Below, piece after piece: positions 36,153 through 48,659 of a DNA stretch of 64,000 nucleotides; within the stretch, counting starts at the first letter, position 1; every line of letters starts with the position of its first letter. Both the position numbers and the translations under genes were made by a program. Below the pieces are notes generated by a model that saw nothing but the letters and a program-made list of their open reading frames with translations, was not told the DNA's origin and searched no databases. The stretch comes from Alphaproteobacteria bacterium (lineage in GTDB: Bacteria > Pseudomonadota > Alphaproteobacteria > UBA7887): NCBI GenBank assembly GCA_965216755.1, contig CBDCGL010000011.1, positions 4,192,001 through 4,256,000 of the forward strand, read 5' to 3'.

Positions 36153-38466
36153 GCTGTTCTCTCTCCATGGTGATCAAAACAGGCGGTAGGAAAAGGAAAT
36201 CGGCCAACAGCGCGAAGCCGATGGTGATCGCGGTCAGCAAGCCCATCCAGGCGTTGAGCATGAAGGTGGATTGCGACAACACCAAGAACCCGGCTATTAG
36301 CACGACCGACGTCACCCACAAGGCCGTCCCCACCGTGTGGAAGGCGTAGCGGACCGAGTCCGACGGGCTGGCGTCGCGTTCGCGACGTGCGCGCAAATAC
36401 TTGCTCAAGAAGTGAATGGTGAAGTCGACAACAATGCCCAGGCTCATCGCCGTCACAATCGAAATGGCAACATTGGCTTCGCCGACGATCAAGCCCCACA
36501 AACCGAACGCCATCAACGCCGGCACTAGATTGGGGAATAGGCTGATCACGCCAAATTTGACCGATCGCAACGCCAGGATGAGCGACAGCGAAATAAGAAT
36601 AAGCGCCGCGGTGGTCCCGAACAGCATGCTCTCGATGTTTCGTTTCGAGATGTAGGCGAACATGACGAAGGAGCCGGTTGCCGAACTGCGCATATGTTCG
36701 GGCGCATTGGCAGCCAGCCACGCATCCGCGCGCCCCGTTAACGCGCGCACTTCGCGCGTGCTGATGGCGTCCGTGGTGATCACCAACCTAGCCGCCGACT
36801 TATCGACATTGACCTGGTTGTTCAAGTCCAGCCCATAGGGCAGGGACATCTCATAGAGCAATAAATATTGCGCGGCCAATTGACGATCATCGGGCAAGCG
36901 ATACCAATCTTGATCGTCGCCATGCATGCTCTTGTTCAGACGCTTCATGATATCGGTCAAGCTGTTGACGTGCACGACACCCGGTTGCTCTCGATACCAA
37001 TTGGCGAACGCCTCCAGCACCGCGAGATATTCCGGATCCGCGACGCCGCCGCTGTCTTTGGCCGCCAGCGAGTATTCCACCGCATAGATCCCCGACAGCT
37101 TCTCAGCTGCAAAATCGGTATCCGCGCGAAATTCGATGGCCGGATCGAAATACTGAACAAACCGGTCGTTGAGATCGATACGCGGGATAAACGCCGCAAG
37201 GCCAATAATCAAAAGTCCGATGACGACGATTAACGGCGTCCGACGGGCGACGACAAATTCCGCTAAGCGATCCATGGCTGTCGTTTGCGCGCCTTTGCGC
37301 ACCCGCACCCGCATTGGCATGATGTCCAGGAACACAGGCAGAAAGAAGACCGAATAAACGTAGGCCGCTACGACCCCCATTGCCGTGATATTGCCCAGAT
37401 GCGCGAATGGTGGGGCGTCGCTGGCGTTCATGCTCAGAAAGCCGATCACGGTGGTCAAGCTTGTCAGGAACACCGGCTGCATATTGAGGCGCAGCGATTC
37501 AACAATCGCATCGCGTTTGGTCGCGCCGCCACGCATTTCCGCCAGCATGGTCACCAAAATGTGCACACTGTCGGCAATCGCCAGCGTCATGATGATGATC
37601 GGCGCGCTGGCACTGGGCGCCGTGAGCGGGATGTTGAGCCACCCGGCCAGCCCCATCGCCGAGCCGGCGGAAAAGATGATGATCAACACCGTGCCGAGCG
37701 TGCCGGCCGTCGAGCGGAACAACAGCGCGATCGCCAGCACGATAATGCCAAACATAATCGGGATCAGGGTTGCTGAATCGCGTTGGCTCGACTCCGGGAA
37801 GGCATTGTTGAGCATGACGATCCCGGTCAAGTAAATCCGGACTTCGGGATATTGTGCTTCAATCTTGGCGGCAAGCTCGCGGGCGAAATGGGCGGCCTTG
37901 GGCACCTCGGCGATTTCTTTGCCGGGCAATTGCAGGGTGACGTTGACCGCCGTCACGTCGGTTGTCTCGCGAATGAGGCGATCGCGCAGCAAAGGTTCGG
38001 CCAATGCGATGTCGCGTGCAGCCGCGATTTCGTCCGGCGTCCGCGCCCCCGCGTTTTGAACAAGATCGGCGACCACCAAGTCGTCGCCGTCAGCGGCGGT
38101 GTGTTGGTAGTTGGTGAGCGAATCAACCCGGATCGAGTATGGGACTTGCCATGCCTCTTCGGTCAGCGTTTCCACTGCCGCCAAAGTTTGCGGCGTGAAG
38201 ACGTCTTCGTCGCGCGGTGCAATCACGAAAAGAATGTTGTCATTCTTGGTGTAGCGTGCCTGCAAGGCCTCGAAGGCCTGCAATTGTGGGTTTTCGTCGC
38301 TGAAGAAAACCCGGTAATTGTTGACGAAAATCAGCCGCTGCGCGCCCATGAATGTGGCGACAACCATTACCAAAGTTAGCGCTAAGACGATCCATCGCCA
38401 TCGCAAAATGGTTTGGGCGTAAGAAACGGTCAGTCGGTCGGCGCGCGATAGTTCGCTTTTAGCCAT
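36109..38466 (-). CDS. MMPL/RND-family transporter
   Basis: Two TM repeats with LAIADSVHI and LGIVVDFTIHF; large periplasmic loops. Confidence 0.92.
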   Translation of the reverse strand: MAKSELSRADRLTVSYAQTILRWRWIVLALTLVMVVATFMGAQRLIFVNNYRVFFSDENPQLQAFEALQARYTKNDNILFVIAPRDEDVFTPQTLAAVETLTEEAWQVPYSIRVDSLTNYQHTAADGDDLVVADLVQNAGARTPDEIAAARDIALAEPLLRDRLIRETTDVTAVNVTLQLPGKEIAEVPKAAHFARELAAKIEAQYPEVRIYLTGIVMLNNAFPESSQRDSATLIPIMFGIIVLAIALLFRSTAGTLGTVLIIIFSAGSAMGLAGWLNIPLTAPSASAPIIIMTLAIADSVHILVTMLAEMRGGATKRDAIVESLRLNMQPVFLTSLTTVIGFLSMNASDAPPFAHLGNITAMGVVAAYVYSVFFLPVFLDIMPMRVRVRKGAQTTAMDRLAEFVVARRTPLIVVIGLLIIGLAAFIPRIDLNDRFVQYFDPAIEFRADTDFAAEKLSGIYAVEYSLAAKDSGGVADPEYLAVLEAFANWYREQPGVVHVNSLTDIMKRLNKSMHGDDQDWYRLPDDRQLAAQYLLLYEMSLPYGLDLNNQVNVDKSAARLVITTDAISTREVRALTGRADAWLAANAPEHMRSSATGSFVMFAYISKRNIESMLFGTTAALILISLSLILALRSVKFGVISLFPNLVPALMAFGLWGLIVGEANVAISIVTAMSLGIVVDFTIHFLSKYLRARRERDASPSDSVRYAFHTVGTALWVTSVVLIAGFLVLSQSTFMLNAWMGLLTAITIGFALLADFLFLPPVLITMEREQHVPQEKPDSVTAPV

Positions 38467-38468
38467 GG

Positions 38469-39074
38469 CTATCTCGCTTTCAAGCTTCCCAAATAGTGGA
38501 TCAAACCGGCGACGCAAGCCTCGATAACGTCTGGCCGCCGTGACGCCTTGATGGCGCCGATGCTGCCCTCCACAGCGGCAATGAAAAAGGTAGCGGTTTG
38601 TGTCGGATCGATGTCTGGGCGCACCTCTCCGGCGTTCTGGCCTTCCGCGATGGCTTCGGCTAGGCGTCTCTGCCAGATCGTGAATACATCACAAAGATGC
38701 GCCCGAAACTCGTCGTCAATCGGCGACATCTCTTGGGCCAAATTGTTCAACGGACAGCCGAGCGCCACGGTTTCCGGTGTTGCTTCTGCCGCAGCCGCCT
38801 TGACCCGTGCGATGAGGGAATCGATGACACCGCCACCGGTCGACGGCGCCTCCAGCCAGTCGGCGAGCACGCGGTCGGCGATCACCTCGTCTATGACCGC
38901 CAATCCGAGATGTCGCTTGGTCGGAAAATGATGATAAAGGGCTCCCTTTGTCACCCCCGTCCGCGCCAAGATCTCGGTCATGCTCGCGGCCTGAAATCCC
39001 TTTCGATGGATCTCGTGGAACGCCGCATCCAACAGGGCTTGTCGGGTGGCTTGTGGATTGTAGGCAGCGGGCAT
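38469..39074 (-). CDS. TetR/AcrR regulator
   Basis: HTH GVTKGALYHHFPTK, GCPLNNLAQE. Confidence 0.92.
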   Translation of the reverse strand: MPAAYNPQATRQALLDAAFHEIHRKGFQAASMTEILARTGVTKGALYHHFPTKRHLGLAVIDEVIADRVLADWLEAPSTGGGVIDSLIARVKAAAAEATPETVALGCPLNNLAQEMSPIDDEFRAHLCDVFTIWQRRLAEAIAEGQNAGEVRPDIDPTQTATFFIAAVEGSIGAIKASRRPDVIEACVAGLIHYLGSLKAR

Positions 39075-39093
39075 GGAACCAAAGCGTATACAT

Positions 39094-39111
39094 TCATACC
39101 TGTCGGTATGA
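39094..39111. promoter_or_regulatory. Probable TetR operator
   Basis: Palindrome TCATACC-tgtc-GGTATGA about 20 nt upstream of the TetR start. Confidence 0.65.
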
Positions 39112-39241
39112 TTCATCAGAACACGATGTCCGTCAATCGGATTACGAAATGGTGAAGTCAAACGCGCATGTCAGGCGGCCAAGAAAGCGCGTCTAGGGCC
39201 GGTTGGCCAACTTCAGCTGTGGGACACCGTGGTCAACCGCG

Positions 39242-39512
39242 CATCGCCCGTTCGGGCGATGGCTGACGACTGTGGGGGCGGTCAACGGATCATCGCCCGT
39301 TCGGGCGATGGTTGACGACTGTGAGGGCGGTCAACGGATCATCGCCCGTTCGGGCGATGGTTGACGACTGTGAGGGCGGTCAACGGATCATCGCCCGTTC
39401 GGGCGATGGTTGACGACTGTGAGGGCGGTCAACGGATCATCGCCCGTTCGGGCGATGGTTGACGACTGTGAGGGCGGTCAACGGATCATCGCCCGTTCGG
39501 GCGATGGTTGAC
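39242..39512. repeat. Tandem array of a 49-bp palindromic REP-like unit (5.5 copies)
   Basis: Unit CATCGCCCGTTCGGGCGATGGTTGACGACTGTGAGGGCGGTCAACGGAT at 39242, 39291, 39340, 39389, 39438, partial at 39487; the first copy has two substitutions. Confidence 0.95.
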
Positions 39513-39513
39513 C

Positions 39514-40692
39514 TTAGTACCTTCGAACTGCCCCTTTGTTTTCCAATGAACCAATCACGGGGACGCCGAGCACAGCTTCGGCGACTTCCGGTCGCTCCAC
39601 GCGGTGATTGAAATACTGCCGCAAAAAGGCGATCAGTAGCGATAGGACGAAGCCGCCGATCATGGCAATCTTTATGTAAAAGATGCGCGAGTGATTGGGC
39701 CGTGCAGGCGCCGAGGCATATTCGATGATCTGCACGTTGATGAGATTTTCGGGTACTGCCTCGCGGGCACGCTCTTGCTCGTAGCGGTCTCGATAGTCCA
39801 AAAAGATCGTCTCTTGAGCACTGATCCGGACGTTCAGATCGTTGATGGTTGATTGCCGTGACTCAAGCCCGCGCAAATCGCGGTTGCGCGCAGTCAGTTC
39901 GGTTTCCTGCGCGGTGATCGAATCAGTGATGGCCGTCACACGCGGATGGTCATTGGAATAAAGCGACAAAAGCTCCGATCGTTCGGTGTTGAGCGTTGCA
40001 ATGCGATCACGAATGCGGCCCACTTCCCGAAGCAGTTCGGCCTTGGCTTCTTCGGGCGAGGTCACCGAATGTTCGGCCATATAATCCGACAGCAACTGCC
40101 GCAGCCGATCCAATTCGATCGAGGCCTCCTCCAGCTTGGTCTCGAAATATTTGCTTGCGCCGCGCGAGTTCACCAACGAGCTGCGATAAGCGATATACGA
40201 CTCCGTCACCGCATTGACGATTAGCATGGCCAAGTTCGGATCACGACTGCCATAAGAAATTGTCATGATGTTCGAATCGACGATGGGTTTGATCTTGATA
40301 TCGTCGGTGAGATTCTCAATCCAGGCTTCGCGCGGCGGCACGGCCGTACGCAAGCCCAAGCGTTCCATGAGTGACGGCTTCTCGGCGCCCAACGGGTTGC
40401 CGCTGTCACCGGCATTCTGTGGAATGAATTCATCGACAACGGCTTCGATCACCGGTCGCGACCGAACAATCTCGATCTCGGTGTTCATGGCTTCAGCCAT
40501 TTCCGGAACGGTCGTCAGTGGCCCGGTGATAATCGGTGCTTTGGTCCGTTCAACCAAAACCGTGCCGCTGGCGATATAGGCGGGCGGCCTGAAATAGGTC
40601 AGTACGGTTACGATCGCGACCACAAACACCCACCAGCCGAGGATGCTGCTCTTATAGCGAAACAGAAACCATAGAATGTCGCGTTTGGTCAT
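39514..40692 (-). CDS. Polysaccharide co-polymerase (Wzz/GumC family), no kinase domain
   Basis: N- and C-terminal TMs, TEIEIVRSRPV, SNIMTISY, YSNDHPRV, coiled coil. Confidence 0.85.
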   Translation of the reverse strand: MTKRDILWFLFRYKSSILGWWVFVVAIVTVLTYFRPPAYIASGTVLVERTKAPIITGPLTTVPEMAEAMNTEIEIVRSRPVIEAVVDEFIPQNAGDSGNPLGAEKPSLMERLGLRTAVPPREAWIENLTDDIKIKPIVDSNIMTISYGSRDPNLAMLIVNAVTESYIAYRSSLVNSRGASKYFETKLEEASIELDRLRQLLSDYMAEHSVTSPEEAKAELLREVGRIRDRIATLNTERSELLSLYSNDHPRVTAITDSITAQETELTARNRDLRGLESRQSTINDLNVRISAQETIFLDYRDRYEQERAREAVPENLINVQIIEYASAPARPNHSRIFYIKIAMIGGFVLSLLIAFLRQYFNHRVERPEVAEAVLGVPVIGSLENKGAVRRY

Positions 40693-40784
40693 CGTGTCAG
40701 CTCTGGCTGTTTGTGCTTGCCTAAATCGAATTTACGGCATCGCCAATTCCGTCGTCTCGCTCGGCGCGGCGTTCTATTTGGCCA

Positions 40785-42005
40785 TCAATAGAAAAAACTC
40801 GGAATTGGGAAATCTCTCTTGTTCAAAACCACACTGCTCAACGTCAGCGTGGCGTTGCTCAGCTCGTCGCGTAGCCGCTCGATCGCTTGGACGGTCGTGC
40901 GTTGGGTATCGATCACCAAAATCACCTGTGTTGAAACACTGGCCCAACGATAAGGCGTGTCCGTGCTTAGGGCGCCTGCATCCACAACAACAACGTCATA
41001 GCGATTGCGTAAGTTCTCAAATGTATCCGACCAACCGTTTTCATAAGGAAAGCGGCCGTCCGCGCCATTGGCCAACGCCATCGCGTCGACGCCCCAATTG
41101 TCGATTTTAATGACGTTATCGTCATCGACGAGATTCGCCGGATCTTTGATCGGCGTCGGTCCACTACCCGGCAAACGCTGGGTCAGCCGATTGCCGTTTT
41201 CGGCCGCATCCACCAACAAGATTCGGTCGTCGCCGTTGCGTGCAAACGAGCGAGCCAGCCCACCGGCGACCGTTGACACGCCTTCGCCGGGCGTGCGGGA
41301 TGTCAGCACGATCACAATCGCGCCACGCCGCTCGCTGTAATCATTTGCCGCAGCAATTATCCGTAGCCGAATTGAATCAAAAACTTTCTCGATCCGCTGA
41401 ACGCGTCGGCTGACGCGACGCGGGCGCGACCGCTCCCGACGGCTGGGCGCAATCTTCTTGGTCCGCAGGTCAATTCCCGCTGCCGCTTCGGTGTCGCGGC
41501 TCCTTGTCGGTGTCGAAGGCACCTCGGCCACGAGTCCCTGACCGCTGCCGGGTTCGGTCGCGAACGGTTTGATCGTCGGACGTTCTGCCACCAACGGCTT
41601 GGTCGCGCGGCCATTGGGTTTTTCATCGCCCGACGCCGCAGTCGTCTTCAACTCAGGGCGCTCGGCAATCAGTGGTGTCGGTGCATCGCTACGCTGTTTT
41701 TTTTCAGGTTTCGTTTGGGAACTATCGAATTGCGCGAGAATGCGGGCAACGCGCAGATCGCCGGCTTGGCGCGATTTGTTGCAATTGGCGTGGACGAGCG
41801 CGAAGTTGGCAGGTTCGTCCTTACCGCCCTCGCGAATTGGTTCAACATGCTCGATATGCAGCGACGCGTCGTCGTTATCGGTCGCCTCGGCAACATCGAT
41901 CGGCTTGCCGCACAAATAACAGGTGCCGTTTTGGCGATTCGCTAGCCCTTGAACAAGGTCTTTGCGCTCAGATCCAGAAAGGCCTTTTAGGTACTGAGAT
42001 CCCAT
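40785..42005 (-). CDS. HNH-domain / CpsD-CapB (BY-kinase-like) fusion protein
   Basis: N-term CYLC...IEHVEP...GG...NFALVHANCN; C-term TSRTPGEGVST, ILLVDA, YDVVVVD, VVLNKR. Confidence 0.75.
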   Translation of the reverse strand: MGSQYLKGLSGSERKDLVQGLANRQNGTCYLCGKPIDVAEATDNDDASLHIEHVEPIREGGKDEPANFALVHANCNKSRQAGDLRVARILAQFDSSQTKPEKKQRSDAPTPLIAERPELKTTAASGDEKPNGRATKPLVAERPTIKPFATEPGSGQGLVAEVPSTPTRSRDTEAAAGIDLRTKKIAPSRRERSRPRRVSRRVQRIEKVFDSIRLRIIAAANDYSERRGAIVIVLTSRTPGEGVSTVAGGLARSFARNGDDRILLVDAAENGNRLTQRLPGSGPTPIKDPANLVDDDNVIKIDNWGVDAMALANGADGRFPYENGWSDTFENLRNRYDVVVVDAGALSTDTPYRWASVSTQVILVIDTQRTTVQAIERLRDELSNATLTLSSVVLNKRDFPIPSFFY

Positions 42006-42426
42006 CTGTCGCCCTTAGTCCACGCTCTTGCCGTCTTTTTTGAGCGTTTGTGTGTTCCACGCCGCAGCTTGTCGCCTCATGCCGCCATCGTTGCGGCGTG
42101 CACAAAGCGCCAGGCGCGGACGCCCCAATTCAATTTCGTCTCGGCGACAGCGATACCCCACCACCTTCGGCCGTAAGGGCTCGAAGACCGCTAACACCGG
42201 CATGTTTGCTTCTGCATATCAGAAGCTCAGCTTCGGTCGCCACGGCATAACTCTGGGCACTCCCAGTCTGTCATCCAATCGGCCCAACGATGACAAGCCG
42301 GCCCGTGCCTTCTTGCAACAGCATCCAGAGTATCGCCCAGGTTGGATGCTACCAGCAATTTGCTTGTTCTTATCGCACACCCTGCTACGCCGCACAATGA
42401 AACTAATCCGCAATAGTCCGACCAGA

Positions 42427-43458
42427 CTATGACGCCGACGGCGCGATTGGGCGGTCCAAAACCTGTGTTTGTGGGGGCCGTGATGATGTCGCCAGATGCC
42501 TTTCCCATTCCAGCGCCGTGCGCACGATATGTCCCAAATCATCATATTGTGGCTGCCAACCCAGCGTTTTCCTTATGCGGCTATTATCAGCGATAAGCGC
42601 TGGTGCATCGCCGGCGCGCCGCGCGTGTTCGTGCACCGGAAAATCGATCCCGGCTACCCGTTTCACTGCCGCAATTACCTCACGCACGCTGGCACCATGG
42701 CCGTAGCCACAGTTTAAAACTGCCGAATCACCGCCCCGGTCCAAATATTCCAAAGCATCAACATGGGCCTGCGCCAAGTCGTCGACATGAATATAGTCGC
42801 GAATACAAGTGCCGTCGGGCGTATCATAATCGGTGCCAAAAATAGCCATGTTCGGTCGTTTTCCGACAGCCACCTCGCACGCCACTTTGATCAGATGGGT
42901 CGCGTCGGCGGTTGCTTGCCCAACTCGGCCCATGGCATCCGCGCCGGCCACGTTGAAATAGCGCAAACTGATGAAGCGCAGCGCGGTCGCCGCAGCCAGA
43001 TCCATGATCATCCGTTCGCTCATCATTTTCGAGGCGCCATATGGGTTGATCGGCTGTAGCAGGGTATCTTCATCGATCAGTGAGGCCTCGGGTATGCCGT
43101 AGACGGCTGCGGTCGACGAGAACACGATCTTGCCGATCCCAAATCGGTCGCACAGGCGCAGCAGAGCCAAAGTATTGGCCGTATTGTTGTTGTAATATTT
43201 CAGTGGATCGCGAACCGATTCCGGCACGACGATATGGGCCGCCATGTGGCAGACGGCATCGAAACTCTGCGCGTCCAGCAGCTTCCCAAGGCGGGTCGCA
43301 TCGGCAATGTCACCCTCCACCAGGGTGCCTTGGGTCACCGCCCAAGCGTGCCCGGTCGAAAGATTGTCATAAGTGACGACTTCATGCCCGGCCTCTGCCA
43401 GACGAATGAGAATGTGGCTGCCGATATAGCCCGCGCCGCCGGTCACCAAAATACGCAT
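42427..43458 (-). CDS. galE: UDP-glucose 4-epimerase
   Basis: TGGAGYIGSH, FSSTAAVYG, PYGASK, LRYFNVAGA, DGTCIRDYIHV. Confidence 0.95.
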   Translation of the reverse strand: MRILVTGGAGYIGSHILIRLAEAGHEVVTYDNLSTGHAWAVTQGTLVEGDIADATRLGKLLDAQSFDAVCHMAAHIVVPESVRDPLKYYNNNTANTLALLRLCDRFGIGKIVFSSTAAVYGIPEASLIDEDTLLQPINPYGASKMMSERMIMDLAAATALRFISLRYFNVAGADAMGRVGQATADATHLIKVACEVAVGKRPNMAIFGTDYDTPDGTCIRDYIHVDDLAQAHVDALEYLDRGGDSAVLNCGYGHGASVREVIAAVKRVAGIDFPVHEHARRAGDAPALIADNSRIRKTLGWQPQYDDLGHIVRTALEWERHLATSSRPPQTQVLDRPIAPSAS

Positions 43459-43497
43459 GTCGCTATTCTCCGAAGACTTCTTTCGGCCCTGTTTGAC

Positions 43498-44679
43498 TTA
43501 GCGCGTGCGCCAAGCGGCGATCAGATCGCGCGCAGCGTTTTCCATTCGAAACGCCAATTTCGATCGCTGTAAAGTGAGCGCCGATCGGTATTCCTGGTCG
43601 GTGGCCAACCGCCGTTTATGAAACGTGTCTCCGTGCAGAAAATCGACAACCGCTGCGCCCGTGTGTAAGCCATGCACAATACCCAAATAGTCGCATAGCA
43701 AGCCGATGCTGACATCCTTGTGCGGGCTTCGCATAAGCCCCCACTGGTAACAGTAAATGCGACGGTCAAAGACGAAATTGTAAATGTAACCAATGGGTTT
43801 GGGCCCGGCACGTACACGCAAAAGCTGAATCTCACCTGCCGCGAAGCGCCGATTGACGAGATCAGCGTGGAATTGGCGAAACCAGGGGGATTCGAGCGAC
43901 GTCGAAAAGCCCCGATCTTGCCAATCCGCCAAATGAAGGTTCGCAAGTTCCGACAGATAGGTCTGCGCCTCGGGCAAGGTCGCGGCCGTGTCGATGCTGA
44001 GGGCGCCATTCTGTTCGACCATCTTCCGCGATTTGCGCAGATGACGGCGCGTCTTCTTGCCCAAAAGCGCCTCAAAATCGCCACCCGACGCGCGCACTTT
44101 GTCGAGGTCGACGATGTGGCTCGTCAGGTCGCGGGATACCAGGCCAGGCGCCTGCAACGCTGCGGCGTGTTGGACATAGTGGGGCGCCACGCCTGACAAC
44201 TGGATCTCGTCCCATTCGCCTTGTTGTAGGCCTGCCACCAGCCGCGTAATGGCGGCCCGCTCAATCGTCAGAGCGCCGACGTCTTGGGTCAGAAAGCCGT
44301 TATGCTCGATGGTTAGACGGTCGTACGGCATCGTCCCCGTCTCATGAAGATGGAGGCGACGAGACGAGATCAAACTGCGGCGCCGCAGGCGTTTTTCAAC
44401 AAGGATTCCCAGACCGACGGTCCGGTCCCGGTGATGCACACGCAAAACCAGCAGTCGCAACGCGGCCGGAATGTGTGCCAGCCAGCATTCGATCCAACTC
44501 CAGGACTGGAAAAAGCTGGGTTGGCCCTGGCATTGCAAGTTCTGCCAAGAATTGGCCAAGTCGCCAACATCCGTCAGCGGCATCAGCTCAGCATGCAGCT
44601 CATCCAGCGCAATAGTGGCCGGCCTGCTATCCGCTTGGGTGGTATCTCTTAGAACTGTGTTCGTATTCGAAACCATCAT
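43498..44679 (-). CDS. GNAT acyltransferase, CelD/BcsL family
   Basis: FFQSWSW, LGKKTRRHLRK, DFLHGD..HKRRLA; polysaccharide-cluster context. Confidence 0.8.
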   Translation of the reverse strand: MMVSNTNTVLRDTTQADSRPATIALDELHAELMPLTDVGDLANSWQNLQCQGQPSFFQSWSWIECWLAHIPAALRLLVLRVHHRDRTVGLGILVEKRLRRRSLISSRRLHLHETGTMPYDRLTIEHNGFLTQDVGALTIERAAITRLVAGLQQGEWDEIQLSGVAPHYVQHAAALQAPGLVSRDLTSHIVDLDKVRASGGDFEALLGKKTRRHLRKSRKMVEQNGALSIDTAATLPEAQTYLSELANLHLADWQDRGFSTSLESPWFRQFHADLVNRRFAAGEIQLLRVRAGPKPIGYIYNFVFDRRIYCYQWGLMRSPHKDVSIGLLCDYLGIVHGLHTGAAVVDFLHGDTFHKRRLATDQEYRSALTLQRSKLAFRMENAARDLIAAWRTR

Positions 44680-44935
44680 ATTAGATAATGGGGTCGCCGC
44701 TTGGCGCGGACGAGCCGCCGCGGTGCTTGGAATACCTGATGTTGTTAGTCCCCAACGGGGTCAGTGTCTGACGAGTGACGTAATATGGCAAGAGCCCTTG
44801 CCACGAACGCGCCCGTTATGGGCCATTTTGGGCGGCGTGGTGTGCTGAGCCAGGCCCCGACCGCAGTTTGCGACTTGGCCTTGGATGGCCGCGTGCGGTG
44901 TCAGTTAACTTTTTGAAATGATTGCGATTTGACCG

Positions 44936-44970
44936 AAAAATAAGGTCCGGCACAGTTGCTGTGCCGGACC
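44936..44970 (-). terminator. Rho-independent terminator after the export lipoprotein gene
   Basis: 12-bp stem GGTCCGGCACAG/CTGTGCCGGACC then TTATTTTT on the minus strand. Confidence 0.8.
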
Positions 44971-44995
44971 CATATGATGAAGCCGTTTGTTCGGT

Positions 44996-46018
44996 CTAGT
45001 CGTTTAAGTCATAGGTCAAGCCGAAGCCGGCGTTGAGGCTGAACGGCAGCATGTTCTTGATGTACTGCTCGATCCACAGATTCGCCTCGGCGATGCCGGA
45101 CGGCGGAACCACAACGATATCTTGCGGTATCAACTGAAAACTGGCGCCGTTCGGCGTGCCGCCGTCCGGCGACTTGCGCAAATTGAAACGCCAGTGGCTG
45201 TGCGTGCCGTCGTTGTTGAAACGTATTACCCGTACATCGCGGGGCGACGCCGTTGGCAAATAGCCCCCGGCGGCAGCGATGGCCATAAACGGATTGAAGG
45301 GGCGCGTATATTCGACGCCAATCGGGTTGACCACTTCGCCAACCACGTAGACCAGAGGAATGGCGCGCTCGGTGAGATTGACTGTCGCCTCGACCCGGCC
45401 GCCAAATTCACGTTCATAGGCGCTTCGCACGTCGGTCTGAACGTCGACGAGCGCCCTGTTGGCCATAATCGGGTCGATATAGGGCAGGGACAACATGCCC
45501 GAATCGGAGACCACAACGCTAAGCGGCAAATTGCCAAATCCCGAATCCAAGCCCATCAAACGCTCAAGCCGGCGATCGCCCTGTTCCACGACAACTGCGA
45601 CCTGTGACGTGCGAATCCCCCGGCTCCGGTAGGCGCTGGCCAGGTCTCGGCCAAGCGCATCGACCGATTTGCCGGCCGCCCGCACGCTGCCGACAACCGG
45701 CAGTGATATGTGCCCGTCTGGCAGGACAACGATGCCCGTGGTAGTCAGATTGTCGTGCTCCGCGACGCTGACCGCGAGCACGTCATATACGTTGATGAGA
45801 TAGCGCTGAGTCTCGACCTCGGTGTTGCGGTAATAGCGCACTTCCAGCCGGTCGCCGGGTCTGAGATTAAGCGACTGTGCGGCAGCATCATTGGCCGCCA
45901 TGGCTGATTCCGGAGAGCTCGCCGCGCCGCGTGGCGCCGGCGGATAAGCCTTAGTGGCGCAAGCCCCTAATAGCAAGGCTGAACATAAGGCTATCGCCTT
46001 GATTGTAAAGGAATGCAT
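44996..46018 (-). CDS. Polysaccharide biosynthesis/export lipoprotein (Wza-like, SLBB)
   Basis: Lipobox LGAC, VLPDGHISLPVVGSVRAAG, VYVVGEV, AIAAAGG, DIVVVP. Confidence 0.88.
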   Translation of the reverse strand: MHSFTIKAIALCSALLLGACATKAYPPAPRGAASSPESAMAANDAAAQSLNLRPGDRLEVRYYRNTEVETQRYLINVYDVLAVSVAEHDNLTTTGIVVLPDGHISLPVVGSVRAAGKSVDALGRDLASAYRSRGIRTSQVAVVVEQGDRRLERLMGLDSGFGNLPLSVVVSDSGMLSLPYIDPIMANRALVDVQTDVRSAYEREFGGRVEATVNLTERAIPLVYVVGEVVNPIGVEYTRPFNPFMAIAAAGGYLPTASPRDVRVIRFNNDGTHSHWRFNLRKSPDGGTPNGASFQLIPQDIVVVPPSGIAEANLWIEQYIKNMLPFSLNAGFGLTYDLND

Positions 46019-46810
46019 GGATACTCCGTCCGTTCCGACTACGTAACTGCGTCAAATTCCGGCAGACTCGCCGCAACGGCAACACCGTTGACGAAAGCAC
46101 TTTGCGCTAACCGGAAACATGGTCCCCAAGAAAGAACGATACCGTGAAGGGTGAGTGTAGGCACGCAACGCGCCCGCGGCCAAGCCCTGTCGCGTTCTTT
46201 GCACGCGATGCTAGGGTGTGACGCGAATGCCGCAGCCAATATAGACGGAAATTCCCGCATACCTTCCCTGTTCGCCGTAAGTGGCCAACCTACCCCTCTT
46301 TTGTATCAACGGCGCCGTCCGATCGCTTGCAGCGATTCCCTAGACAATCACCGTGTCCAGCCTTGTTTCGGCTAGATCACAGATAACTTAACATTAACAA
46401 GCTTTTGTGTCACCCTTGTCCAATGTCGCCGGGTCCTTATCAAGGGTTCGTCGATGCCGCGCACCGGATCCCGGTACGGACAATTGGTGAATCGCAGGAT
46501 TAGCTATGGTGCCGATGACGACATCGCGCGCATGCCGGCTGTCGGTTCAACTGTGCCATTCGCGCCGCACTCTGCGCCGTCTCCTCCCATCCTCGCCGAT
46601 CATTTTGTCACGCAATTATCACAACACGAGCGACGCAAGCAGGCGAATCATTTTGTTAGACGCGGGTAGCGATTCGAAACACAGTCGCTCATGAGGGGCG
46701 ACACGAGCAGCGGGCGCGAAAGACCGAAAGGGGTAGGCCGGTCGCGAATGCCCATAGGCGGTGTTTAGGTCGTGGCAAGCGTGATTGCTGGTTGATTTGA
46801 GAGAAATCCT

Positions 46811-46939
46811 GTGACTTTCGAAATTCCTGGCCGCTTGTGCAGCGAGCAAGTGAAAGCGTCCACGACGATTGTTCTGATGGTCGTGGCAAGCGCTGCGATT
46901 TGGTCGGCCCTGGTCGTGATTGGCGCGATCATTTTCTAA
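46811..46939 (+). CDS. Putative small single-TM protein (42 aa, or 29 aa from GTG 46850)
   Basis: MTFEIPGRLCSEQVKASTTIVLMVVASAAIWSALVVIGAIIF; below the ORF-track cutoff. Confidence 0.45.
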   Translation: MTFEIPGRLCSEQVKASTTIVLMVVASAAIWSALVVIGAIIF

Positions 46940-47123
46940 CGCAATTGCCGACGTTGAAACGTACCGCTTGAGAGTCTGTTCGCCGAAGCGAAGCAGTCAT
47001 TTATCCGGCTTCGCGAACGAGCTTGCGTGGGCGCGGCGCGTCTGAAGATCGCGATCCGGCAGCCGTGTAGAATGCGCCAAAGAGCGGGCGCACAATGTCG
47101 GCGCACAGTCTACCGCAAATCGT

Positions 47124-48659
47124 TTAGCCGTTCGGCGGATTTCGGTCACCGTCACTGGGTGCGCTCTTGTGCGTGGCGAGCCAAGTGCGGGCTTGGCTTT
47201 GGGCACTGTCGCGCTGGGCGGCCGACAACAGCGGTGCGCTCTTGGCGATATTCCGAGTGGCGCGGTTGCGCACCGCGCTGAGGTCGTCAGCCAGCGCGGC
47301 GGCGATATGCCACCATTTGTTCGCGCGCACGGTGTCTTGTGCGACGCCATGGCCCTTCAAGTACAAGACGCCAAGATTATGCTGCGATTCGACATGACCT
47401 TGCTCGGCGGCACGACGATACAGTCGGGCAGCGGCCCGATAGTCTTGGCCAACGCCTTGACCAAGATAGTAGAGTGTGGCGAGCGCGTGCTCGGCCTGCG
47501 GAAGGCCCACGTTCGCGGCGCGTTGGAACCATTGCGCGGCGACACTTGGATCGGCTGGAACACCCTGGCCATTTTCATAGAGCCCGCCGAGATTGTATTG
47601 GGCGATAGCCGATCCTTGTTCGGCGGCTTGGCGATACCAAAACGCCGCCGCGGCGAGGTCCCGGTCGACGCCATGTCCCAACGCATGCATGACGCCGAGA
47701 AAGTTTTGCGCGGTCGGATCACCGTCCTGCGCGAGCAACTCAAAAGCGCGGATCGCGCGGCCATGGTCTTGGGAATGATAGGCCGCGAAAGCATCGTCAA
47801 GGCCCTTGTCCCGGTCCTCTTTGCCCTTTGCGCCCCGGCCCGGCCCAGGTCCAGCGACCGCTGCCCCAGTCGCAGGCAAAGGCGACGAAGACGTCGTAGC
47901 GCCGTGCGTTGCCGTGACGGCGACGGCGTTGTCCGGTAAAGCCAGCACGCACGCGGCGCCGCGCGTCTTGAGTTGTGCGCAAATATGGCGTGCGCGCCGC
48001 TCATCGAGCGGCCCGGCGCGAACCCTGTGAATCTGGAAATTATTCGAGATCCCGTCACGCACGAATGTCTCGATTCCGGCGAACAGGTCGGCGTGCTTTT
48101 CCACCAATCCGCGTCGCAGATTTTCTGCTGGCGCGCGACCTGATCTGAATGCGCCCAATTGGATTTCGTAGCGCGGTGCCGCACGCGGCTGCGGCGGCGG
48201 TTCTTTCAGGCTTGGTCGTTCGGCCGGGACAGAACTGGACCGGGCAATCGTCGGCATTTGCCGGGCGTGCTGTGGCAAATTTCCTGGCGTCGGGATCGCG
48301 GGCGGCGCGGCGATCGAGTTCTTGCGGATACGCGTCCGTTGGAGCAAGTCAAGGACGTTGCGATGGCCCCACACGGCGGCCATCGTGGCAGGTGTCTCAC
48401 CAAATTGGTTGGTCGCTTCGACTTCGGCGCCATGGGCAATCAAGATGCCGACAATTTCGGTAAAGCCACTGGACGCTGCGACGTGCAAGGGCGTGTTGCC
48501 GTCGTGGCTCCGTGAGTCGACCGGGAGCCCAGCGCTGATAAGTTCGCGCACCCGGTCGGCATCGCCGGCGCGGGCGGCATCATGCAACGGGCCGGCTCGC
48601 GCCGCCGAAATCGTCAGTATGATTACCCACAGAAAGATGCCGTACCGAATCATTCGCAC
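47124..48659 (-). CDS. Exported ankyrin-repeat + SPOR-like + Sel1-repeat protein
   Basis: GNTPLHVAA ankyrin; YEIQLGAF...HRVRAGPL...AC SPOR; four Sel1 repeats. Confidence 0.85.
   Translation of the reverse strand: MRMIRYGIFLWVIILTISAARAGPLHDAARAGDADRVRELISAGLPVDSRSHDGNTPLHVAASSGFTEIVGILIAHGAEVEATNQFGETPATMAAVWGHRNVLDLLQRTRIRKNSIAAPPAIPTPGNLPQHARQMPTIARSSSVPAERPSLKEPPPQPRAAPRYEIQLGAFRSGRAPAENLRRGLVEKHADLFAGIETFVRDGISNNFQIHRVRAGPLDERRARHICAQLKTRGAACVLALPDNAVAVTATHGATTSSSPLPATGAAVAGPGPGRGAKGKEDRDKGLDDAFAAYHSQDHGRAIRAFELLAQDGDPTAQNFLGVMHALGHGVDRDLAAAAFWYRQAAEQGSAIAQYNLGGLYENGQGVPADPSVAAQWFQRAANVGLPQAEHALATLYYLGQGVGQDYRAAARLYRRAAEQGHVESQHNLGVLYLKGHGVAQDTVRANKWWHIAAALADDLSAVRNRATRNIAKSAPLLSAAQRDSAQSQARTWLATHKSAPSDGDRNPPNG

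Follow-up and report, generated by a model that had tools for sequence, protein, structure and literature searches.

A truncated HNH module fused to a bacterial tyrosine pseudokinase in an alphaproteobacterial polysaccharide export locus

Bacterial tyrosine (BY) pseudokinases have recently been recognised as phosphorylation-independent scaffolds of polysaccharide co-polymerases (PCPs), and the pairs EcpK/EpsV from Myxococcus xanthus and HfsB/HfsA from Caulobacter crescentus are described as a stand-alone BY pseudokinase acting with a kinase-less PCP of type 2 (PCP-2) (PMC12004946). In addition, GumC from Xanthomonas has been called a possible "pseudo-BY-kinase" (PMC9800525). The gene considered here lies in a stretch of 64,000 nucleotides (in the following, the window) from an alphaproteobacterial genome of the lineage UBA7887 (assembly GCA_965216755.1, contig CBDCGL010000011.1, positions 4,192,001 to 4,256,000), and it encodes an N-terminal HNH module, a linker and a C-terminal BY pseudokinase domain. 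A preliminary description of the locus, made from the letters alone, had noted one uninterrupted open reading frame (ORF) at this place; the frame of 406 residues without internal stop is indeed present, with the strand corrected to minus.

It seems probable to us that the gene represents a real, lineage-specific fusion which is made as one chain, and in which a pseudokinase scaffold carries a truncated, restriction-like HNH module that appears to be constrained. The pairing of a BY pseudokinase with a PCP is known; a family of such pseudokinases with a well-conserved P-loop devoid of the Walker A lysine, and the fusion of one of its members to an HNH module, were not found described. Provided that the HNH module is active, a pseudokinase with a second enzymatic module would couple an export machine of the envelope to the cleavage of DNA. 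With an inactive module, the gene would be a clean natural example of how a fragment of a mobile defence gene came to provide a housekeeping-type gene with a new 5' end and its start codon. Since one gene from one genome is concerned, the general weight of either outcome is modest.

A BY pseudokinase domain and its co-polymerase partner

The C-terminal half of the protein has the BY-kinase or MinD-like P-loop fold. When a profile of its family was compared with the PDB, the best matches were the catalytic BY-kinases VpsO (6u1q, E 3e-32), CapA/CapB (4jlv, 2ved, 3bfv, E 2e-26), BceF (6z0p, E 3e-19), Etk (3cio, E 1e-18) and Wzc (3la6, 7nhr, E 1e-17), with all of which the fold is common. An AlphaFold2 (AF2) model of residues 195-406 reaches a mean predicted local distance difference test score (pLDDT) of 89.7, and Foldseek superimposes this model on VpsO, Wzc, BceF and CapB with template modelling (TM) scores of 0.62-0.75. 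No curated threshold is reached by this half, the best NCBIfam matches being polysaccharide tyrosine-autokinase models, i.e., TIGR03018 (43 bits, equivalog cut-off 230.65), TIGR01007 (42.5 bits) and TIGR03029 (25.4 bits, cut-off 313.8). In the locus, the scores for the equivalog models TIGR03017 (89.9 against 422.75), TIGR03007 (65.6 against 278.85) and TIGR03027 (75.6 against 180) are likewise far below their cut-offs, and loci of the XrtA/PEP-CTERM or EpsE/F/G type are distant kin only.

In the HMMER alignment, geGVtT of the family stands opposite GEGKTT of VpsO, and V243 takes the position of the lysine of VpsO and CapB. The preliminary description had interpreted this P-loop as degenerate. 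The valine in place of the Walker A lysine is there, but a local degeneration is contradicted by an alignment of 77 stand-alone family proteins (A3), from which all motif counts given here are taken: the column holds V in 66 of them, T in 4, S in 3, A, I or C in one each, and K in none. The lysine-less P-loop is therefore a family-wide feature and not the decay of this one gene. G242, the Walker B aspartate D342 and P402 are invariant. The C-terminal tyrosine cluster is absent, as had been stated, with one tyrosine among the last 20 residues (family median 2, maximum 4), although it has to be added that this tyrosine, Y406, is the very last residue and is conserved in 73 of the 77 members. In catalytic BY-kinases the consensus is GxxxxGK[ST] for Walker A, hhhhDxDxR for Walker A' and hhhhDxxP for Walker B; the latter two motifs are named in PMC12004946. 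Walker A' reads ILLVDAAENGNR (LLVDAAENGNR) and keeps the first aspartate (D in 62/77), the second being replaced by alanine, and Walker B reads VVVVDAGA, with an invariant aspartate and an alanine at the proline position, where P occurs in 6/77. Unlike catalytic BY-kinases, the domain thus has a valine for the Walker A lysine, has lost the second aspartate of Walker A' and the proline of Walker B, and possesses a single terminal tyrosine in place of a cluster. By sequence and model, the earlier proposal of a pseudokinase appears well founded. Across the family, the P-loop G-E-G-V-[ST]-T and a C-terminal motif N-K-R-x-[FY]-x-[IV]-P-x-x-[FL]-Y are sharply conserved.

The pseudokinase family itself is large and widespread and consists mostly of stand-alone proteins of about 210 residues. 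Among the 150 best hits of a phmmer search with the whole fusion protein, those matching residues from about 200 to 406 are mostly proteins of 205-220 residues, and a few are Wzz-fused proteins of 680-870 residues. A word-indexed search yielded four relatives, three of which are stand-alone proteins of 235-260 residues that are 45-48% identical to the C-terminal half. Chains of PslE from Pseudomonas match positions 141-209 of the family profile, the region of its C-terminal motif (E 3e-12). Like GumC, PslE has a non-catalytic BY-kinase-like domain in polysaccharide export; in both, this domain is fused to the PCP, whereas the domain in the window has an HNH module as its fusion partner and the PCP as a protein of its own. 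A first contig scan with the pseudokinase alignment gave 41 pattern matches, none of which was confirmed, and one locus considered as a further family member (L105) was rejected, its 568-residue frame being an ordinary Wzz-kinase fusion with GEGKS. The two halves of the fusion protein were folded separately. MAFFT alignments that combined both (A2, A5) overlaid HNH on kinase columns, at identities to the query of 20-38%.

As the preliminary description had it, the next gene downstream encodes a kinase-less co-polymerase, a Wzz/GNVR-type PCP of 392 residues that is a separate ORF without kinase domain and ends 35 residues past its second membrane helix. Its score with the NCBIfam EpsF model (89.9 bits) is below cut-off. 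In three of four metagenome loci (L010, L011 and L013; L012 lies outside the comparison) the ORF layout gives the same order of pseudokinase and PCP, and in L013 alone the downstream PCP was confirmed, being 53% identical to the PCP of the window. Complex prediction for the pseudokinase domain with PCP residues 350-392 gave an interaction prediction score from aligned errors (ipSAE) of 0.76 compared to 0.40 for the best control, and of the reference sets, 116 of 157 solved complexes and 2 of 215 mismatched pairs come up to the mark applied. The runs agree in at least 84% of contacts, with a partner pLDDT of at least 75, and the predicted interface comprises PCP residues 362-385 and residues 389-397 of the pseudokinase protein (195-203 of the 212-residue chain that was modelled). 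For the PCP tail, the model suggests an attachment to the domain like that in the CapA/CapB chimeras.

By analogy, the pseudokinase would sit on the cytoplasmic tail of the adjacent PCP-2 and scaffold its oligomeric state without phosphorylating tyrosines, and the PCP would work with a Wza-like exporter. An export role of this kind would not need the HNH module. The likeness to EcpK and HfsB is one of description: in the account of PMC12004946, both are separate from the PCP, have the BY-kinase fold and lack the Walker A lysine and a tyrosine cluster, and their partners EpsV and HfsA are kinase-less PCP-2 proteins in pathways with a Wza-like outer-membrane polysaccharide export (OPX) protein. 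The predicted binding of the PCP C-terminus parallels the models of EcpK/EpsV and HfsB/HfsA presented by the same authors. There are also differences. Unlike EcpK and HfsB, the pseudokinase in the window carries an N-terminal HNH module and a linker of about 100 residues, and its gene adjoins the PCP gene, whereas ecpK is reported not to be situated beside epsV (PMC12004946). Moreover, EcpK is reported there to lack any Walker motif, whereas the family described here keeps G-E-G-V-[ST]-T, the Walker B aspartate and the last tyrosine, and with its P-loop conserved it may still bind nucleotide. The terminal tyrosine might be a target of the three full-length Wzc-like kinases encoded elsewhere in the genome.

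The HNH module as the first fifth of a longer protein

HNH motifs are defined by a catalytic histidine, an asparagine and a final metal-ligand histidine or asparagine, together with zinc ligands of the type CxxC...[CH]xxC. An N-terminal HNH/zinc motif had been recognised from the letters, and this assignment stands. Pfam PF01844 (HNH) matches residues 29-79 with 33.9 bits, above the gathering threshold of 21.4, and the motifs CYLC (29-32), EH (52-53), N67 and HANCN (72-76) fall on invariant columns of a family alignment of 40 sequences. The invariant residues that are kept include C29, C32, H53, P56, G61, D63, N67, H72, C75 and N76, and in our reading of the alignment all catalytic and zinc residues (C29, C32, H53, N67, H72, C75 and N76) are intact. 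The AF2 model of residues 1-130 has a mean pLDDT of 70 and shows strands at 49-53 and 68-72 and a helix at 73-77, as would suit a beta-beta-alpha-Me core. All top Foldseek matches of this model are HNH nucleases (the HNH domain of Cas9, Gme HNH and Cap5), at a weak level (best E 4.3e-3, TM 0.34-0.47). PADLOC returned just weak PtuB-type HNH matches (best E 4e-5) and no known defence system.

From its first methionine to about residue 100, the fusion protein matches the N-terminus of a family of about 535 residues with about 45-56% identity, and the native start of the family is kept (MGSxYL; MGSQYL in the fusion, MGSLYL in the family). The phmmer hits to this part (45-52% identity) also have the HNH at their N-terminus. 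The family was scanned with one genome per species, and the best 80 of 160 confirmed loci (L024-L103) were kept. Nearly all of these encode a protein of 530-541 residues (for example L031:6001-7614 and L073:5998-7602), and the members are 45-93% identical to one another. Judged by record titles, they occur in Nitrospira, Planctomycetes, Verrucomicrobia, Acidobacteria, Proteobacteria, Firmicutes, Chloroflexi and one archaeon. Beyond the HNH part, members possess a conserved C-terminal region of about 440 residues containing FDGQHKAAAQILLG...LPVRVF, for which no Pfam or NCBIfam model matched. Its DGQHK segment is, we presume, similar to the ParB-like DGQQR/DGQHR of GmrSD and DndB. An additional, weak lead comes from the Atlas (score 0.83-0.84), in which two viral clusters contain GmrSD_N in 23-88% of their members; the automatic Atlas cluster name of the family is "putative HNH endonuclease". 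In five of eight family loci examined, the gene stands beside DNA methylases, SNF2 helicases, type I restriction-modification subunits or recombinases, the other three loci being uninformative. The family gives the impression of a group of restriction or defence nucleases that is as yet undescribed. Its members often adjoin very large Eco57I-type methylases.

The fusion protein keeps the invariant columns of this family and lacks the C-terminal region of about 440 residues including FDGQHKAAAQILLG, so that it is a fragment and not a full member. The host genome holds just residues 1-105 of the family protein P0059 (search at E up to 10), and a sample of 400 genomes from the same class contains no member of the family (E up to 1e-8), which together indicate that the fusion carries the first fifth of an imported gene. 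Residues 1-95, and perhaps residues to about 119, correspond to the HNH module of a restriction-like protein from defence islands whose other four fifths were lost. Three phmmer alignments from the HNH side extend to residues 119-121 and R105 falls on a near-invariant column of the HNH family; the stretch from residue 96 to about 119 may still belong to this family in diverged form. Whereas the family often stands beside methylases, the fusion is found in a polysaccharide locus, and no methylase or other immunity partner adjoins the fusion gene within the window.

Integrity and interpretation of the fused chain

The linker of about 100 residues with a repeated motif, which had been noticed in the preliminary description, does contain three copies of L[IV]AE[RV]P (positions in Table 1). 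All six frames of the 5.0-Mb genome hold only four further matches to this pattern, and three copies within 60 residues are hence far beyond chance. Over the heptapeptide P-L-[IV]-A-E-R-P, repeats 1 and 2 differ in all seven codons, six of them synonymously, and the 21-residue units around both align locally with a score of 46. Tandem Repeats Finder detected nothing at the DNA level in 40700-42500, as the copies differ at nearly every synonymous site. This pattern suggests an old internal duplication that has been kept at the peptide level, and it seems that a unit of about 21-26 residues carrying P-L-[IV]-A-E-R-P was duplicated and thereby lengthened the linker. Residues 102-130 are predicted to be disordered (pLDDT below 50); the AF2 model of the N-terminal part ends at residue 130, and residues 131-194 lie outside the models. 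For residues 96-200 no homologue besides the query was found among proteins of 223-711 residues. The tetrapeptide ERPE is common to the PCP tail (VERPEV; HRVERPEVAEAVLG) and to linker repeat 1 (PLIAERPELK), and PCP residues 362-366 are part of the predicted pseudokinase interface. The sharing is probably due to chance, since the PCP tail of L013 has STPD at this place.

With regard to translation, the only possible internal starts before residue 231 are GTG codons at residues 159 and 162, and their Shine-Dalgarno-like spacing is poor (3 nt and 12 nt, respectively). No ATG, GTG or TTG occurs between residues 162 and 231. Members of the pseudokinase family start about 10-15 residues ahead of an FD motif (residues 209-210 here), so that an internal start like that of the family no longer exists. 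Codon log-odds, for which 1,251 long ORFs from the genome served as training set, rank frame 0 best of the six frames in each segment, with 0.26 per codon for the HNH module, 0.12 for the linker and 0.32 for the pseudokinase. For comparison, genuine coding chunks score 0.12-0.49 (5th-95th percentile), and the 95th percentile of off-frame chunks is -0.17. Intact residues, repeats kept through synonymous change, host-like codons and the lack of a family-like internal start together speak for a fused protein that is both produced and retained. We infer that the chain is translated from the HNH start and that the HNH module and the linker motif are kept by selection; the HNH module, situated on the inner side of the membrane, might there still bind metal and DNA.

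The preliminary description had asked for read support across the junction, and this was obtained from a single sample. Logan contigs from both run X1 and run X2 extend over 40700-42450 and show 0 differences there, and pieces of run X4 bridge 41477-41991, including the junction between HNH module and linker. All three runs come from one sample, possibly the source of the window, and they attest consistency, not independent support. For a second sample (run X3), position 41575 is both the end of a contig and the point where a short unitig branches off, with another such branch at 41571, and one of the two branches continues into C11:831569, inside an unrelated Wzy-like gene of another polysaccharide cluster. 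Both junctions, read with the GATC of the window at 41571-41574, spell GATC-GATC, which we take for the scar that fill-in and ligation leave in a proximity-ligation (Hi-C) library with GATC as its cutting site. A structural variant breaking the linker was considered and rejected, the GATC-GATC joints being read as library junctions. An X3 unitig of 55 nt (depth 8.4 compared to about 4) passes unbroken through 41546-41600; past 41600 this run has no cover and is uninformative. More generally, proximity-ligation runs would mimic breakpoints at every GATC when their contigs are aligned to a stretch.

Several observations weigh against a maintained fusion. When both halves together were compared with 1.84 billion representatives in an exhaustive phmmer search, 1,765 hits with E up to 1e-3 were obtained, and no protein spanning both halves is found among the best 150 of them; as any relative with both domains would rank above all hits with one domain, the fusion is regarded as a singleton. 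The five hits in a set of 5.8 billion sequences include no such protein either, the 90% cluster of the fusion has one member on one contig, and no orthologue was found in the 22 searched genomes of the same family, among which the genus is represented by one genome. The earlier statement that no HNH-BY-kinase fusion has been described agrees with these searches and with the literature, in which nothing relevant on HNH with BY-kinase or Wzc was found by title or abstract. Nor do the two families meet as neighbours, with the kinase-like profile in 0 of 80 HNH loci (820 kb; positive control 80/80) and the HNH profile in 0 of 30 kinase-like loci (128 kb, many with 1.5-kb flanks; positive control 30/30). 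The HNH of the fusion is the most diverged of its family, off consensus at 9 of the 33 columns that are at least 90% conserved, whereas among the other 39 sequences the median number of such deviations is 0 and the highest is 3. The deviations include D52E beside the catalytic histidine, and they could mean relaxed selection instead of a new role. The lost region of about 440 residues presumably served target recognition or control, and the HNH core alone may be inactive. Furthermore, the codon score of the linker equals the 5th percentile of real coding sequence, the argument from synonymous differences rests on seven codons, and the favourable complex prediction may reflect likeness and not binding, as CapA/CapB-type complexes have already been solved. 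Finally, no glycosyltransferase, flippase or polymerase gene lies beside the export module, which leaves the locus incomplete.

A good part of this evidence fits a neutral accident, by which a restriction-like HNH gene landed upstream of the pseudokinase gene and a deletion then took away both the start codon of the pseudokinase and the four fifths at the 3' end of the HNH gene. The HNH module would then be a vestigial, drifting passenger at the N-terminus, kept out of the way by the long disordered linker, and the pseudokinase half alone would matter. The singleton status, the derivation of the HNH module from a mobile family absent from the sampled genomes of the class, its divergence at conserved columns and the lack of any recurrent neighbourhood of both families are all as expected from such an event. 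In addition, a pseudokinase without family-like start depends on the HNH start, which by itself would be enough to keep the frame open. Against such an accident, all catalytic and zinc ligands are in place, and seven of the nine deviations are conservative (F/Y, I/L, D/E, T/V, S/N, R/K and K/R). The peptides of the repeats have been kept while their codons diverged, in a motif that is nearly absent elsewhere in the genome, and the codon score of the HNH module is normal for the genome, which speaks for a long resident and translated segment. We therefore consider a neutral accident rather unlikely, though it deserves to be taken seriously. The suggestion of a "recent chance fusion" in the preliminary description is borne out insofar as an HNH module truncated from a longer mobile gene implies a rearrangement; "recent" fits poorly with host-like codons, synonymously saturated repeats and the most diverged HNH of its family.

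At the other extreme, the pseudokinase and PCP may have been co-opted as a membrane platform, a possibility that we hold to be quite doubtful. In this case, several functional HNH heads would be displayed on tethers of about 100 residues at the cytoplasmic mouth of the export machine, with the repeats as docking motifs. The intact catalytic core, the restriction-like parent family and a linker motif that appears to be under selection would suit such a tethered nuclease, as would the octameric rings that the BY-kinase domains of Wzc and CapB form according to PDB entry titles, since a ring would display several copies. An envelope-anchored nuclease might cut DNA where capsule-recognising phages inject it, or might supply or process DNA linked to the exported polymer, and with it a BY pseudokinase scaffold would for the first time be seen to recruit an enzyme. 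On the other hand, there is no second example, the families are never neighbours, the C-terminal region of the parent is gone, and the PADLOC matches are weak and of PtuB type. With no immunity partner adjoining in the window, an unrestrained nuclease would endanger the cell's own DNA. The coupling of the capsule machinery to nucleic-acid binding or cleavage that the preliminary description had suggested likewise has no comparative support, given a singleton fusion and two families that are never neighbours. That the two halves do not form one protein at all, either by an internal start at GTG 159 or 162 with a silent HNH frame or by an assembly misjoin of two genes, seems very improbable. The two GTG codons exist, and all junction-covering runs come from the one sample mentioned. 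Against this, three assemblies of that sample are letter-identical over 40700-42450 or parts of it, the internal spacers of 3 and 12 nt compare poorly with the 6 nt between AAGGG and the ATG, codon scores mark frame 0 of the HNH module and of the linker as coding, and in a frame without stop any ribosome starting at the ATG makes the fusion. The reading that we prefer remains that of a fusion made as one chain with an apparently constrained HNH module on a pseudokinase scaffold.

Gene setting

The fusion gene belongs to a module of five export genes, all on the minus strand and in the order Wza-like protein, acyltransferase, GalE, fusion and PCP (Table 1), the Wza-like gene being situated three genes upstream of the fusion. 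The genes flanking the module are unrelated, with a TetR regulator and an MMPL transporter on one side and a Sel1/ankyrin protein, TfoX, an ATP-dependent ligase and an Lhr helicase on the other.

Table 1. Coordinates in the window of the fusion gene, its parts and the neighbouring export genes.
Feature	Residues	Position	Strand	Remarks
Whole fusion ORF		40785..42005	-	406 codons + stop; HNH module, linker and BY pseudokinase in a single frame
HNH module	1-95	41721..42005	-	N-terminal helices, predicted beta-beta-alpha-Me core, C-terminal helix
Linker	96-197	41415..41720	-	joins HNH module to pseudokinase
Repeat 1, LIAERP	112-117	41655..41672	-	
Repeat 2, LVAERP	138-143	41577..41594	-	
Repeat 3, LVAEVP	158-163	41517..41534	-	
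BY pseudokinase domain	198-406	40788..41414	-	assigned by profile against PDB, AF2 and Foldseek
Modified P-loop GEGVST	240-245	41271..41288	-	Val (V243) at Walker A Lys position
Shine-Dalgarno-like AAGGG		42012..42016	-	6 nt upstream of ATG at 42003-42005
Kinase-less PCP-2 (Wzz/GNVR type), 392 aa		39514..40692	-	next gene downstream of fusion; Pfam Wzz 25.0 bits (cut-off 25.5)
PCP cytoplasmic C-terminal tail	358-392	39517..39621	-	predicted to dock on pseudokinase
GalE, UDP-glucose 4-epimerase		42427..43458	-	TIGR01179, 459 bits (cut-off 262)
GNAT / FemAB-like acyltransferase		43498..44679	-	Pfam Acetyltransf_6, 79.8 bits
Wza-like OPX lipoprotein		44996..46018	-	Pfam Poly_export, 80.2 bits, and SLBB

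The gap of 420 bp between GalE and the fusion gene (window 42006-42426) contains no notable ORF, Rfam match or promoter-like site in a simple scan. In the metagenome relatives, a glycosyltransferase family 4 (GT4) gene ends about 100 bp ahead of the pseudokinase gene, and the gap may for this reason mark the site where the locus was rearranged. An Rfam scan of 38000-47200 at E up to 0.1 gave no match, and a scan for promoters and terminators found no excess over shuffled sequences, the minus strand near the fusion gene being empty. The GC content around the gene (0.53-0.62, compared to 0.592 for the contig) is unremarkable.

A second polysaccharide cluster of the genome (L015, G000:C11:830000-837000) encodes two adjacent Wzy-like proteins, a polysaccharide deacetylase and glycosyltransferases of families GT4 and GT2. 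The segment at C11:830-836 kb was considered as the missing biosynthetic partner of the export module and rejected, because identity between the deacetylase, GT4 and Wzy of this segment and those next to the L013 pseudokinase amounts to only 27-32%. Elsewhere in the genome, open frames of 760-777 residues near C11:670 kb, 1,149 kb and 1,892 kb encode the three full-length Wzc-like proteins mentioned above, so that the module of Wza-like protein, pseudokinase and PCP represents an additional system.

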